This document shows, piece by piece, positions 31,878 through 43,320 of a stretch of DNA of 64,000 nucleotides. Below the pieces are notes generated by a model. The model made no database searches, was not told where the DNA came from, and saw nothing but the letters and a program-made list of their open reading frames with translations. Within the stretch, counting starts at the first letter, position 1. Every line of letters starts with the position of its first letter. This DNA comes from a virus: the IMG/VR virus record IMGVR_UViG_3300045256_000135, positions 32,001 to 96,000 of that record; one strand, given 5' to 3'. A program made the translations under genes and the position numbers.

Positions 31878-33974
31878 ATGTCGAATCTGTCCGACCTAGA
31901 GACGAAGCTTAACGCGAAGATTGATGCTCACGTCTATCAGACAGCCGATGACGAATTTATTGAGGATGGTGTTGACCTTAGAGTCAGAGCACCAAACGCA
32001 GTGGAGTGGATCGCTGGATCGAAGTTCCTAAACGTCGAGTCGATCTGGCAGTTTACTCGTCAGTACGAGTTAGTCCGTGATTTCTTCCAGCTTCGTTGTC
32101 CCATTTGCAACAAAGGCGATGGAGACTGCTGGGGTAAAAGTCCAACACAGCTCCAAGACGAAGTCAGGCTGGTTTGGTCTCCAGCGTACAGTGAAGATGT
32201 CTGTCCGAAGTGCAACACCACCCGGACAGAATTCAACCATGACCAACTATTGCGCTCCTTTGATACGTTCATTGGGGTCGCAGGAATGCGGTCTGGCAAG
32301 AGTGTCATGGCAGGGATGCTAGGGACTTACATCCGACACGTCTACACGACGTTTGGGATTAAGGACAAAGGCAGCATCCACAAGATGTTTGGCCTTTTGC
32401 CAACGCAAAACCTAGAACTGGCATTCGTTGCAACTACCGCAACTCAGGCTAAAGAGACAATCTGGGCTAACTTTCAGAAGCAATGCACAGCCTCGCCCTG
32501 GTTTAAGCGCTACGCTGCTTGGATCACGAGGAAGATGAACCGACAGCTGGTTAGCCCTGGTCAGCGTCCCTGGATCTACAATGAGCTCACAGACTTCATC
32601 CAGGACGACTGGCTGATGTTTAACTGTGCATCATTGAACAGCAACTCAGGTGGTCTAGCAGGGCGAACGAGAGTTGGGTTTCTCGCTGACGAGCTTTCAC
32701 GCTTTGGTGTGACAGACTCAAAGATGGGCGCTGATGAAATCTGGGCTGTGTTCGATCACTCTCTGAAGACGATTCGGGGTGCTCGTATTCAATTCCAGAT
32801 GAAGGAGCCATGGCTTGGCACTGCGATTACCGTAAGCTCACCCATCAGCATCGAAGACAAGACGATGCGTCTGTACAATGAAGCGAAGGAGTTGAAGAAC
32901 TACTTCGCGTGGAAGTACCCCACTTGGGAGTTCAACCCGTTCCAGCCTCGCTCCAACTTTGAATCAGATTACAAAGCGGATCCAGTGATGGCGGAGCGTG
33001 ATTTCGGTGCCAGCCCGCCCAACGCCACGAACCCTCTGATTCAGGACCCTCTTCGGTTTTGGCTAAGCGTAGCCAAGTCGTCCACCCCCACAGCTATATT
33101 TAGAGCTACGCATCCCATCGACAAGTCTGGGCGTGAGTACGTAGGTGCTGAACTTGAGCACTCGATCGTTGAACGTCAACGTCCGTTGTACATCTTTGGC
33201 GACGCGGGCAAGAGTTTTGACCAGTTCGCTCTAGTCGCTTGTTCGGGTGTTTGGGCGCCGGCGTTCAACGAGCCTGCTGATCAATTTGCAGTGCCACTGC
33301 AGCCAGTTCAACTGGATCCATTGTACATCGAGCCACAGAACAACTCAGACCCTGAGCAGATGACATTGATGACCGTCCATGAGTGGTCTCTGCGGATCAT
33401 TCCAGAAGACGGTAACCCAGGCAAGCGAGAGGTTTGGTACGAATCTGTTGTGGACATTCTCAGGAAGTTGATGAAGTATCGAAAGATCGCCATGGTTGCT
33501 TTCGACTCATGGAACTCAGCTTCAACCTTGCAAACCATCTCAAACATGGGTATCCCAACCACCCAGGTTAGCTTGAACGTATCAGACTTCTCGAAGGCTG
33601 TTCAAGACGCAATGTTGGGTAGAGCTAAGCTGCTCCCACCACGACCATCTGACAAACTGTCTCTTGATCCATCGAATGGTTCACTGATTCTGGGCATCAA
33701 GCCACAGGATCTATCTGCAGAAGGTGCAACGCTTTACGAGCTGTTGAAGCTTGAGAGATCGAAAGATCTCAAGCAGGTTTTTAACCCATTGAAAGGCAAG
33801 GTTAGGGGAGCAAACTCTGACGACCTTGCTAACTGCTTTGCTGGTGCGCATCGCTTGGTTCAAGAAAGCATCGGTAAGATCACTAACACAGCCATGGAAA
33901 TCAGACGGTCCAAAGAAGAAGCTGGAGCTAGCAAGTTTGTTGGTGGCTTAGCAAGAGGTCCGCGATGGGGTTGA
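31878..33974 (+). CDS. terL: Terminase large subunit
   Basis: Walker A GMRSGKS, Walker B FLADE, VSSP motif, nuclease FGDAG..D and SDDLAN. Confidence 0.88.
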   Translation: MSNLSDLETKLNAKIDAHVYQTADDEFIEDGVDLRVRAPNAVEWIAGSKFLNVESIWQFTRQYELVRDFFQLRCPICNKGDGDCWGKSPTQLQDEVRLVWSPAYSEDVCPKCNTTRTEFNHDQLLRSFDTFIGVAGMRSGKSVMAGMLGTYIRHVYTTFGIKDKGSIHKMFGLLPTQNLELAFVATTATQAKETIWANFQKQCTASPWFKRYAAWITRKMNRQLVSPGQRPWIYNELTDFIQDDWLMFNCASLNSNSGGLAGRTRVGFLADELSRFGVTDSKMGADEIWAVFDHSLKTIRGARIQFQMKEPWLGTAITVSSPISIEDKTMRLYNEAKELKNYFAWKYPTWEFNPFQPRSNFESDYKADPVMAERDFGASPPNATNPLIQDPLRFWLSVAKSSTPTAIFRATHPIDKSGREYVGAELEHSIVERQRPLYIFGDAGKSFDQFALVACSGVWAPAFNEPADQFAVPLQPVQLDPLYIEPQNNSDPEQMTLMTVHEWSLRIIPEDGNPGKREVWYESVVDILRKLMKYRKIAMVAFDSWNSASTLQTISNMGIPTTQVSLNVSDFSKAVQDAMLGRAKLLPPRPSDKLSLDPSNGSLILGIKPQDLSAEGATLYELLKLERSKDLKQVFNPLKGKVRGANSDDLANCFAGAHRLVQESIGKITNTAMEIRRSKEEAGASKFVGGLARGPRWG

Positions 33975-42800: not shown

Positions 42801-43320
42801 GACACAAGCAGCGTGTAAGGCAGCTGGTATCACATCGTTCACGATTAGCAGAAATGTTGAGAACAAGTACGGTAATGCTGGTATCGTTAGTCAAATGGTG
42901 GCTGACTACGCTACGAATTCTAAGAACGGTGGCGGAGGTCAGCTAATCGCTAACCCATTGACCAGCTGGTCGCAAAAGAAGCTCGGAAGTTTCGGAAGCT
43001 TTACGATGCAAAAGAACACCCCGGTACATCTGATCTTCATGCACCACCAGCAGGAAGCTGGCTCGATTAACTTGTTTGGCAGTTACACCGACAACGAACT
43101 CGAGTTGGTTGCAATCTCTCAGAAATGCTCTTCGGTTGCACCTATAACATCAACATCAGGTGTTGTGAAGTTTGCTCAAATCTCGGTTGCTGATTCTGTT
43201 GACACCCAAGAGCCTGATAAATCGTTGCCTACAGGGCTAGGTAAATACGTGTATAGAGCCAAGGATCTGTGGTGGTGGATCACCAACAACAGCGTTGAAC
43301 CTGTTTACTACGTAGGCTGA
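39859..43320 (+). CDS. Large multidomain protein with wHTH-like repeats and a probable C-terminal ADP-ribosyltransferase domain
   Basis: ISRNV ... LTSWS ... NELELV matches the R-S-ExE pattern. Confidence 0.65.
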   Translation: MLDVKKALGMTPDSWVLDENYEVGDNAPHERTDLAVGRTDLDELSVRTAFDLTAAKGPGTPGWCEHHKQNHHKNTKCPFMTGGGTSETSAPPEHSNHNKAKESIKATIFDACKKLGLGLAPSADLSGFIATLQDLGEPTWHTAKSTFIATIKGEMQCSTEQAESIFKQLTETGLFKEQNGEVVYDPGGESTSPTPQKGLKPKKIEAPLDKSKFSPGDVAALVDKLDLAPGSAELGFVKALSNAGVDGLTKTELLESSHLDPQEAEAALKTLLADAGKAITTDGSGNEQKIYFGDFSGNPNPRANTGWTAQDPLVVTKAMGWNVGGKGEAMLRTLAKAAEDGMTVEQLITAMPKPKAGSNKPNAALAKTLLDAVVDKGLASYDAKTKKYTLGVDKAKLEADKLKKLKEIEEKAKQDAIAAAEKAKQDLIQNKLKSLTYPPNTYAAGSVPKPQYASKPAPQGVPVDVHQIAQFLGKDLHNAEELKQFESSSEGQLLKKISNGVMNAKHLCSTSENRKAMLNLVNSGVIDCTSPAALFDETVSDAVLGATFFSKKKLPGSAQVAKFMPAPSKTELSYADGQITRKVIVSEELEDSIAAAQEVTTIDANAIKFMSTEPGRWWRESELAELLGKKVKLSSDLLESRGEGIRVKWRSLMAYSLKTGTKCPKCHVNHRDGHLCPGAPPPKTKPNAVMPSFDTLALTPAKPAYSTYSQAVAAAKAPMSFPQKVEVAVKAAKEMQASPGTMTHKIISLLVQPQNPSTIAAVLQNAGFKQSPASVLSKLVSKGIVVQQPDGSYLLSGLPNQTSELPTKPGEELLKATSTQPAEGVSEIRAQYPADHPIQFMSEKHAKMFHQLVDYYHQFAAPETNGAAFGTNNVDDIKFNEMLNAASSQIPKKVQQVLKAFAASWIGNSQSWAGQIFNGALVQMKITQQEFAGKSPAIQLNGSHSHEGFVFNSSDVEAPIKMKDGTPGPSIAEVVLHQYAMTQAACKAAGITSFTISRNVENKYGNAGIVSQMVADYATNSKNGGGGQLIANPLTSWSQKKLGSFGSFTMQKNTPVHLIFMHHQQEAGSINLFGSYTDNELELVAISQKCSSVAPITSTSGVVKFAQISVADSVDTQEPDKSLPTGLGKYVYRAKDLWWWITNNSVEPVYYVG
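40042..40110 (+). repeat. Duplicated coding segment, copy 2
   Basis: 68/69 nt identical to 34262-34330. Confidence 0.95.

Follow-up and report, generated by a model that had tools for sequence, protein, structure and literature searches.

Three Multi-Domain Proteins Encoded at the Terminase–Portal Junction of a 183-kb Tailed Phage: A Candidate Cargo Cassette

Results

Three Closely Spaced Genes Separate terL from the Portal Gene

We analyzed a 64,000-nucleotide stretch of viral DNA (the window), which comprises bases 32001–96000 of IMG/VR record IMGVR_UViG_3300045256_000135 (183,244 bp, complete according to CheckV), and focused on three long open reading frames (ORFs) that lie between the genes for the large terminase (terL) and the portal protein. 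On balance we read these three genes as a cargo cassette for the phage head. Coordinates are window positions unless marked "genome," and the block and its neighbors are all on the + strand. The left boundary of the block is terL (31878–33974; phrog_17415, E 9.9e-47) and the right boundary is the portal gene (43323–45719; phrog_16240, E 2.6e-78). Between them lie ORF1 (33965–37345), which encodes 1126 amino acids (aa), ORF2 (37347–39866), which encodes 839 aa from its ATG (or 861 aa if translation began at the TTG at 37281), and ORF3 (39859–43320), which encodes 1153 aa. The terL and ORF1 reading frames overlap by 10 nucleotides (nt) and those of ORF2 and ORF3 by 8 nt, the ORF2 ATG lies 1 nt past the ORF1 stop codon, and the portal ATG lies 2 nt past the ORF3 stop codon. 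An earlier note, made from the sequence alone, had claimed that three coupled ORFs split the terL–portal junction, and the claim is borne out by the PHROG-identified flanks and by the overlapping or 1–2 nt junctions. Downstream of the portal gene are a MuF-like minor head/head morphogenesis gene (45815–47707; phrog_4728, phrog_115, and phrog_595, E 8e-17 to 3e-13) and a prohead maturation protease gene (48745–49674; phrog_18299, E 3.4e-33), so the block is encoded among virion and packaging genes.

Between 30500 and 48500 we found 6 promoter-like sites (11.7 expected from shuffled sequences) and 16 terminator-like sites (16.4 expected), and the GC content was flat at ~0.50. The nearest named relative of the phage is Virus Rctr197k, to which terL is 38% identical and the portal protein 43.5% identical over 90% of the query length; Bacillus phage G, PaBG, and the Myrna-type mycobacteriophages are more distant. 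A megablast search of 50,697 phage records found no close DNA relative of the block. The exact ORF3 protein is recorded on two contigs. The longer has 366,137 bases, almost double the 183,244 of the present record, and may therefore be an assembly in which this phage is concatemeric or duplicated.

ORF1 Carries Two Tandem Atypical Kinase Domains

ORF1 consists, in order, of an N-terminal region that contains a CHHC knuckle (described below), a conserved 70-aa unit, and two tandem atypical kinase domains. Among full-length relatives the closest is P0006 (963 aa), which ORF1 residues 528–1125 match at E 1.9e-200. The last 494 residues of ORF1 form two paralogous domains (29% identity, E 9e-28), encoded at 35861–36478 and 36599–37342, and both copies bear FLFK/YLFK, DW..GN.D....N, and G(I/V)DK motifs. 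The ATP-binding Lys (K653 in domain 1 and K906 in domain 2), the catalytic Asp..Asn pair (D729..N734 and D984..N989), and the metal-binding Asp (D746 and D1001) were assigned by motif position, not by superposition. Domain residues K28, D106, and D123 of the second copy (ORF1 K906, D984, and D1001) are invariant in a 16-sequence alignment, and N111 is kept in both window copies.

An AlphaFold2 model of domain 2, generated with 14 short family members added, had a predicted local distance difference test (pLDDT) score of 95.2 and a predicted template modeling (pTM) score of 0.92, and it contains a helical C-lobe. When the model was compared with known structures by VIA-align, which is independent of Foldseek, the top match was PI4KIIalpha (4pla; Z 14.3, root-mean-square deviation 3.5, 210 residues aligned), followed by CtkA (Z 12.3) and MavQ (Z 11.8), and then by ATM, Vps34, Fam20C, actin-fragmin kinase, CotH, and HipA; 48 chains score a Z of at least 8, and these are kinases of the same superfamily. 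Foldseek gave 181 PDB matches (E<=1e-3) for the model, with PI3K, PI4K, and Legionella LepB at the top of the list. The earlier note had proposed two tandem kinase-like domains on the strength of the motifs above, and the paralogy of the two copies together with the kinase fold upholds that proposal.

Sequence searches gave a different picture, and these results have to be set against the kinase assignment. No Pfam family scored above its cut-off for the kinase domains, and at E<=10 there were matches only to DUF7809 (0.16) and DUF4135 (0.092). The PI3_PI4_kinase family (PF00454, cut-off 27.1 bits) had no match to the window domains at E<=10 and was found in relatives only below its cut-off (18.6 bits in P0010 and 23.8 bits in P0044). 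PDB sequence and profile searches with ORF1 and with the kinase profile returned nothing meaningful. In addition, the fold does not discriminate among protein, lipid, and small-molecule substrates. Together, the model and the conserved residues establish that the domain has a kinase fold and an active site that looks intact. Kinase-PolyVal (PF18762) was also considered as the identity of these domains and was rejected, as its model matched nothing in the phage genome as a whole at E<=10 and hmmscan of the domains did not report it.

The Kinase Family Is Large and Often Found with Head Proteins

A profile of the two ORF1 copies was run exhaustively with HMMER against 1.84 billion representatives (50% clustering). 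It matched 1488 of them at E<=1e-3, most of which are 1000–7700 aa long, and 251 reached E<=1e-30. Among the 150 matches listed, 61 contain more than one copy of the domain (two copies in 56 and three in 5). Representation in annotated phages is confined to 12 mycobacteriophage records (tblastn). One of these proteins, McProf gp54, combines an N-terminal VG15 minor-capsid domain, the kinase-like domain, and a C-terminal ADPrib_exo_Tox domain, and its gene lies directly after the portal gene; another protein that holds the kinase domain, Onyinye gp16, is annotated "ADP-ribosyltransferase." Onyinye gp16 was also the best match of the kinase model in BFVD (TMq 0.81), where other matches included a 1201-aa "phage portal protein, HK97" and caudoviral and haloviral proteins automatically annotated as PI3K/PI4K catalytic domains. 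Fusion partners among the short representatives include Phage_Mu_F (P0139), an XkdF-type protease (P0087), InPase (P0140), and 2H phosphoesterase (P0075). A local jackhmmer search seeded with the ADP-ribosyltransferase (ART) domain of McProf found an ART domain, mostly C-terminal, in 21 of 149 other kinase representatives.

IMG/VR contains 284 loci that encode a relative of the kinase, and the best 80 of these fall into 30 host-ORF clusters. The 30 cluster representatives contain Phage_Mu_F in 8 cases, an ART family in 3, InPase in 1, and NUDIX in 1. We also sampled the 84 same-strand ORFs that lie within two genes of these representatives. Portal families among them were Phage_portal (4), Portal_Mu (3), P23-45 barrel (3), SPP1_portal (1), and DUF4055 (1), categories that may overlap; the other families found were MuF (4), XkdF protease (4), terminase (3), ParB_N (8), Zeta_toxin (5), and ART (2+1). 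The contexts are not all structural, because DNA_pol_A occurs in 4 of the 84 neighbors, and this counts against a uniform association with the head. Overall there is good circumstantial evidence that the kinase domain usually travels with head proteins and ARTs. Intein-related domains also occur in and beside this family: one member (P0054) has an N-terminal intein splicing domain, and two flanking ORFs contain Intein_splicing and two contain Hint_2.

ORF2 Combines a Dps-like Ferritin Domain with an InPase Domain

The layout of ORF2, whose residues we number from the TTG start, is a Dps-like ferritin domain, two zinc ribbons, an InPase domain, and a long low-complexity C-terminal half. The ferritin-like four-helix domain (37758–38138, residues 160–286) matches Pfam Ferritin (PF00210) at E 1.1e-10, with a score of 42.1 bits against a cut-off of 24.5, and Rubrerythrin at E 6.4e-8 (residues 160–288 overall). 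Among PDB entries it matches the Dps-like chains 8w1d (E 1.5e-9) and 2vzb (E 6e-6). The set of di-iron ligands is complete (E170, E203-x-x-H206, E250, and E280-x-x-H283), and their columns align with those of 8w1d and 2vzb. The above-cut-off Ferritin match and the aligned ligand columns thus substantiate the ferritin-like di-iron pattern that had been claimed for ORF2. No relative of the ferritin-plus-ribbon part was found by tblastn in the 50,697 phage records or in an IMG/VR pattern scan.

Between the ferritin and InPase domains, two CxxC...CxxC zinc-ribbon-like pairs (38292–38348 and 38382–38429) can be read from the translation; a family search returned no match for them. The InPase domain itself (38508–38852, residues 410–524), the type I pyrophosphatase-like OB domain of polyvalent proteins, matches PF18823 at E 4.9e-26 (91.6 bits, cut-off 26.8) and the minor head protein family phrog_4660 at E 3.6e-16, and it includes the acidic motif D-G-E-P-I-D (38640–38663). 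Zinc ribbons and an InPase-like domain had likewise been proposed in the earlier note, and both were recovered here, as two CxxC pairs and as an above-cut-off PF18823 match. The domain also matches residues 613–733 of the Pa193 portal gp19 (9b41_L) at E 6.7e-11. Residues 529–765 of the Pa193 virion portal are described as lacking density (PMC11042391), and the InPase-matching residues fall inside this segment.

ORF3 Ends in a Probable Divergent ART Domain

The C-terminal part of ORF3 (42754–43308) is a probable ART domain of the R-S-E type. The family as we aligned it has six members: ORF3, P0035, P0042, P0044, P0155, and the metagenomic sequence L095. An Arg (in the context x-R-G/R/N-V), a W-S/T pair, and an E-x-E motif are invariant in all six, and in ORF3 they correspond to R998, W1037-S1038, and E1080-x-E1082 (42850–43104). 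The invariance of these residues bears out the R/SxS/ExE pattern that had been read in ORF3, and we take the contexts in which they occur in this family to be typical of R-S-E ARTs.

We compared this family by hhalign with a 35-sequence ART profile, built from phage proteins, and obtained a score of 32.3 (P 1.9e-4, probability 47%). The corresponding controls gave a mean of 11.4 for 60 column-shuffled queries (standard deviation 1.8, maximum 17.2), 17.0 for a reversed query, and 8.9–17.5 for four unrelated profile pairs. The Arg and the STS motif were in register with the ART profile in local alignments; the E-x-E motif was in register only in a global alignment of a 5-sequence profile, which was poor (probability 2.5%, score 14.9). 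A language-model atlas queried with the corresponding domain of P0035 listed DRAT (0.92), DUF4765 (0.92), ADPrib_exo_Tox (0.88), and Mod_ADP_RT (0.87), which we treat as leads only, and a search of the atlas with the ORF3 C terminus returned no usable match.

Several results argue against the ART assignment. The context of the Arg in ORF3 is S-R-N rather than the Y/H/L/F/S-R-G/R of its relatives, and hhalign against a 2-sequence ART profile gave a probability of 0.1. Neither ADPrib_exo_Tox nor ART-PolyVal had a match in the phage genome at E<=10, an hmmscan of the C-terminal family against Pfam found nothing relevant, and a profile search of the PDB found no match. An AlphaFold2 model of the ORF3 C terminus (four sequences) had a pLDDT of 44 and was unusable. 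Having weighed these results against the invariant residues and the profile–profile score, we consider it probable, from sequence comparison, that the ORF3 C terminus is a divergent R-S-E ART.

A word-indexed protein search with ORF3 residues 800–1153 recovered only ORF3 itself among 2858 candidates of 634–2018 aa, a profile search recovered only ORF3 itself among 7332 candidates of 736–2100 aa, and a pattern scan of IMG/VR found no member. A metagenome scan identified two loci, L095 and L096. The ORF at L096:3–1055 has an in-frame stop at codon 39, a position at which L095 reads through.

ORF1 and ORF3 Share Modules with Giant Proteins

We compared ORF3 with a set of 150 kinase-family proteins. 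In a local phmmer search, ORF3 residues 12–58 matched residues 12–62 of three giant members of this set, P0035 (6330 aa), P0042 (5964 aa), and P0044 (4683 aa), and residues 310–400, 433–917, and 966–1150 matched the last ~900 residues of the same proteins. The giants carry a kinase pair near the N terminus as well as a NUDIX domain. ORF3 thus looks, at the level of sequence, like the two ends of a giant protein minus its middle, and ORF1 looks like part of that middle. The N-terminal part of this resemblance includes the motif VLDEN..APHER.DLAV.R...EL.VRTA (39904–40005), which is common to the N termini of the giant relatives. Searches of ORF3 against Pfam, PHROGs, the PDB, and phage genomes (tblastn) returned nothing except phrog_37079, a family of unknown function, at E 0.0054.

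ORF1 and ORF3 also share a module of ~190 aa (ORF1 residues 88–278 and ORF3 residues 50–232; 35% identity, E 8.7e-22) that is centered on a knuckle of the form C-x2-H/C-x3-H-x5-C. The ORF1 knuckle (34265–34315), a zinc-knuckle-like C-x2-H-x3-H-x5-C motif (WCEHHKQNHHKNTKCPF), lies inside this module (34226–34798), and the first CHHC knuckle of ORF3 (40045–40095) has the same motif; a second ORF3 knuckle, C-x2-C-x3-H-x5-C, is located at residue 663 (41845–41892). A knuckle is also found near the N terminus of P0007–P0010, P0045, P0047, and P0102.

The motif has six matches in the phage genome, and two other large knuckle-bearing ORFs are distant from the head module (genome 11380–14478 and 29670–33074), which tells against a special tie to the head. 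Because knuckles occur outside the head module as well, the knuckle is not a marker of that module and the idea that it targets proteins to the head is weakened. The first of the two ORFs lies outside the window and encodes a 1032-aa low-complexity protein with one knuckle (WCKYCKVNHRKNTKCPY) and further CxxC pairs. The second, which starts 2330 bases before the window and occupies window positions 1–1074, lies ~31 kb upstream of the head module and encodes 1134 aa; the sequence VEAGADK.NWCE.H..NH occurs in it twice (residues 167 and 540), and one stretch resembles ParB on visual inspection. This ORF probably encodes a further protein of the polyvalent type.

A second shared element is a unit of ~70–90 aa with a GW..GKG motif, a possible winged helix, for which jackhmmer found 23 domain matches in 15 proteins. 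It occurs once in ORF1 (residues 533–598, 35561–35758) and once in ORF3 (residues 310–400, 40786–41058). A profile of the unit had weak matches only in the PDB (Zur, E 0.27; MarR, E 1.7), and the only Pfam match at E<=10 was DUF6432 (0.11); the wHTH-like units that the earlier note had read in ORF3 are thus a possibility only. Precomputed Pfam entries of the relatives include MarR_2 (P0035) and Dimerisation (P0155), whose location within the protein is not specified. All three proteins of the block also have long stretches rich in Pro, Ala, Lys, and Ser.

The terL–Portal Junction Holds Different Cargo in Relatives

In Virus Rctr197k the gap between terL and the portal gene is filled by one uninterrupted 2175-aa ORF with a GNAT domain (Virus Rctr197k_045, L001:8315–14842), which the record annotates only as a misc_feature. 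No kinase, ART, GW..GKG unit, or knuckle was found in it, and the one connection that emerged was to the N-terminal part of P0075 (E 1.2e-5). The corresponding gap in the IMG/VR relative L003 contains six small ORFs, which include an M15 peptidase and a PAS-domain protein and are unrelated to ORF1–3. In phage G, six small genes (gp8–gp13) lie directly upstream of the portal gene, in a stretch in which terL is not annotated. The terL–portal junction thus appears to be a site at which the cargo varies within this lineage. The possibility that the block is a conserved core of the lineage was rejected, as the Rctr197k and L003 slots share no modules with ORF1–3.

The L003 portal (L003:5201–8830), which follows the six small ORFs, has 1209 aa and is fused to Phage_Mu_F (residues 800–908). 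The MuF-like protein encoded in the window is 630 aa long, its PHROG matches span residues 141–340 only, and the ~290 unassigned residues C-terminal to them could be a further effector. On the other side of the block, an RNase H-like gene (30731–31327; phrog_2259, E 3.5e-43) lies just upstream of terL, and a gene at 28914–29522, also upstream of terL, has weak thymidylate-synthase and dual-specificity-phosphatase PHROG matches; a replication/nucleotide module thus abuts the head module.

Discussion

A Proposed Cargo Cassette of Three Polyvalent Proteins

The class of polyvalent proteins was described by Iyer, Burroughs, Anand, de Souza, and Aravind (2017, PMC5512222). Its members combine several domains in one large polypeptide, their genes lie among those for virion proteins, and they are predicted to travel in the particle and to be injected. 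Their repertoire includes kinase, ART, InPase, NUDIX, 2H, ParB, and MuF/portal fusions, and the commonest hub domain is a zincin-like metallopeptidase, which is present in ~36% of members and is not obligatory. Each protein of the block described here carries more than one domain or module: ORF1 has two kinase domains plus the knuckle and GW..GKG modules, ORF2 has ferritin-like and InPase domains, and ORF3 has several modules plus the probable ART. This accords with the class trait of at least two unrelated effector-type domains per polypeptide. The interpretation that we favor, with some confidence, is that ORF1–3 form a cargo cassette of three polyvalent proteins within the head-morphogenesis operon of a 183-kb tailed phage and are loaded into the head and injected.

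According to this interpretation, the three genes would be cotranscribed and translationally coupled with terL and the portal gene, and their products, synthesized late, would become part of the prohead and enter the next host together with the DNA. Such delivery would mirror that of T4 Alt, of MuF/gp7-fused effectors, and of portal-fused InPase domains. ORF1 would deliver two atypical kinases of the PI3/4-kinase branch, which most likely phosphorylate host proteins. ORF2 would deliver a Dps-like di-iron ferroxidase and a pyrophosphatase-like domain, which could act on Fe2+ and peroxide and on pyrophosphate (PPi) or nucleotide-derived signals. ORF3 would represent the "chassis" seen at both ends of the giant relatives, ending in the divergent R-S-E ART. 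The CHHC knuckles and the N-terminal motif may have a targeting role.

The earlier note had gone as far as an injected host-takeover kit. The enzymatic part of that claim is sustained: the identities of the kinase, ferritin, and InPase domains and the conservation of their catalytic residues have been demonstrated, and the ART is probable. We infer packaging and injection from genomic context and by analogy, and the targets are putative. The label "polyprotein," which the note had also applied to the three proteins, finds nothing to support it in our analysis. Two negative results weigh against packaged polyvalent cargo. No MuF, portal, or other recognized capsid-anchoring domain was found in ORF1–3 by Pfam or PHROGs searches, and there was no Pfam match to a zincin metallopeptidase, although the proteins were not screened for HExxH motifs.

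The first of these negative results would be expected if the three proteins were made late but never packaged and instead acted in the producing cell through phosphorylation or ADP-ribosylation, PPi clearing, and iron buffering, their position reflecting shared late expression. That similar large knuckle-bearing ORFs lie outside the head module and that some kinase-family members adjoin DNA polymerase A genes would fit such a role as well. We nevertheless regard this account as unlikely, given the company that the domains keep: 8 of the 30 clusters have the kinase domain and MuF in one polypeptide, and other fusions join the kinase domain to VG15, to the XkdF protease, and, according to BFVD annotation, to a portal; the InPase domain is part of the virion portal of Pa193; and in relatives the slot holds other effector-like cargo (GNAT in Rctr197k, the M15 peptidase and PAS-domain protein in L003).

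The variability of the slot bears on a further alternative, in which ORF1–3 are chiefly structural proteins of the internal head or the ejection apparatus, their linkers and end modules organize the DNA or an ejection conduit, and the enzymes are accessory or inactive. It would account for the match of ORF3 to only the conserved ends of proteins of 4.7–6.3 kaa (thousand aa) and for the long Pro/Ala/Lys/Ser-rich stretches in all three proteins, and the knuckle and possible winged-helix units could conceivably bind DNA. An essential structural role is hard to reconcile with a slot whose cargo is not conserved in the nearest relatives, and inactive enzymes would not be expected to keep the catalytic residues in both kinase copies, the di-iron site of the ferritin domain, and the ART-like motif. 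We consider this alternative distinctly less likely than action in the producing cell. Least credible of all, and in our judgment very improbable, is that ORF1–3 are MuF-type polymorphic toxins used in interbacterial competition rather than in takeover of the infected cell: the kinase-family domain does co-occur with MuF, ART, and Zeta toxin, but ORF1–3 have no Phage_Mu_F match and the MuF-like gene is separate (45815–47707), no small immunity-like gene follows any of the ORFs because the junctions overlap or are 1–2 nt apart, and the record is a 183-kb phage, complete per CheckV.

If the cargo-cassette interpretation is taken further, the end modules of the ORF3 type (VLDEN..APHER, CHHC knuckles, GW..GKG, and the C-terminal ART) might constitute a previously unrecognized modular chassis for loading very large cargo into the head, and the block might be such a giant split into three coupled genes. 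The PI4KII-like pair could then perhaps be lipid or small-molecule kinases, and the Dps-like domain could protect or prime the DNA within the HK97-type shell. Ferritin-like cargo occurs in encapsulins, which provides a parallel to a Dps-like domain in a phage head. We regard this extended scheme as speculative and rather doubtful; were it correct, two of the enzyme types carried as cargo would be ones that have so far not been linked to virions.

What Is New and Why It Matters

The earlier note had regarded the combination of domains as uncharacterized. This has to be narrowed, as the class and three of the four activities (kinase, ART, and InPase) are already in print (Iyer et al., 2017); the word "ferritin" has no occurrence in the text of PMC5512222, and the kinase family found here differs from Pfam's Kinase-PolyVal. 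We found no description of the kinase family or of a virion ferritin-like protein in the literature searched, which consisted of listings, abstracts, and the cited passages; File S2 of Iyer et al. (2017) could be relevant to the kinase. As far as searches of this extent go, four features appear to be undescribed: the large PI4KII/CtkA-like kinase family, which Pfam does not model; the divergent family of ARTs found C-terminally in giant proteins of 4.7–6.3 kaa; the Dps-like ferritin module in a protein of this kind; and the split arrangement embedded between terL and the portal gene with its recurring CHHC knuckles.

Of all phage proteins, those of the polyvalent class are predicted to act earliest once a cell is infected, and almost none have been tested. 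The ORF1–3 block is a compact and well-delimited example, and a slot into which cargo appears to be swapped would make host-takeover and anti-defense functions directly comparable between relatives.

Comparison with Known Systems

T4 Alt is a head-packaged ART, other ARTs are fused to MuF/SPP1 gp7, and ARTs are often encoded beside terminase and portal genes (PMC5512222, PMC9503650). ORF3 resembles these proteins in that it is encoded in the head module and has a probable C-terminal ART of the R-S-E type, and it differs from them in that it lacks both MuF and an ART Pfam match; the link is made by motifs and by the profile–profile score. A closer parallel is provided by McProf gp54 (BK061309) and Onyinye gp16 (MN813687), in which the same kinase-like domain (25–30% identity by tblastn) is found together with a C-terminal ART. 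In those proteins a single polypeptide contains one kinase copy and a canonical ADPrib_exo_Tox domain, whereas here the kinase pair and the ART-like domain are encoded by separate genes upstream of the portal gene.

The phage kinase domain shares its fold with PI4KIIalpha (4pla), CtkA of H. pylori (3akj), MavQ of Legionella (7m7a), HipA, and actin-fragmin kinase (Z 14.3, 12.3, 11.8, 10.3, and 10.8, respectively, with 190–222 residues aligned), and it has the same catalytic pattern of Lys, Asp..Asn, and Asp. Identity to these kinases is only 12–16%, and the phage domain is distinguished by its compact size of 250 aa, its frequent occurrence in tandem, and its location inside giant proteins. The ORF2 ferritin-like domain likewise has the four-helix architecture and the complete E/ExxH/E/ExxH di-iron site of the Dps-like/bacterioferritin-related proteins 8w1d and 2vzb, and it differs from them in being embedded in an 840-aa phage protein together with zinc ribbons and InPase. 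The InPase domain invites comparison with portal–InPase fusions (Pa193 gp19, PDB 9B41; BcepF1.124), which physically tie a domain of this type to the head interior. For InPase, where a fusion to the portal was named in BcepF1, hydrolysis of PPi or of a nucleotide signal was suggested (PMC5512222). The phage described here instead encodes its InPase domain apart from the portal, on another protein.

With polyvalent proteins as a class, ORF1–3 share a multi-domain organization, a location among virion genes, and kinase, probable ART, and InPase domains. The Kinase-PolyVal family is described as lacking the C-terminal subdomain (PMC5512222), whereas the ORF1 kinase model has a full helical C-lobe, and the cargo in the present phage is split over three coupled genes that lie between terL and the portal gene.

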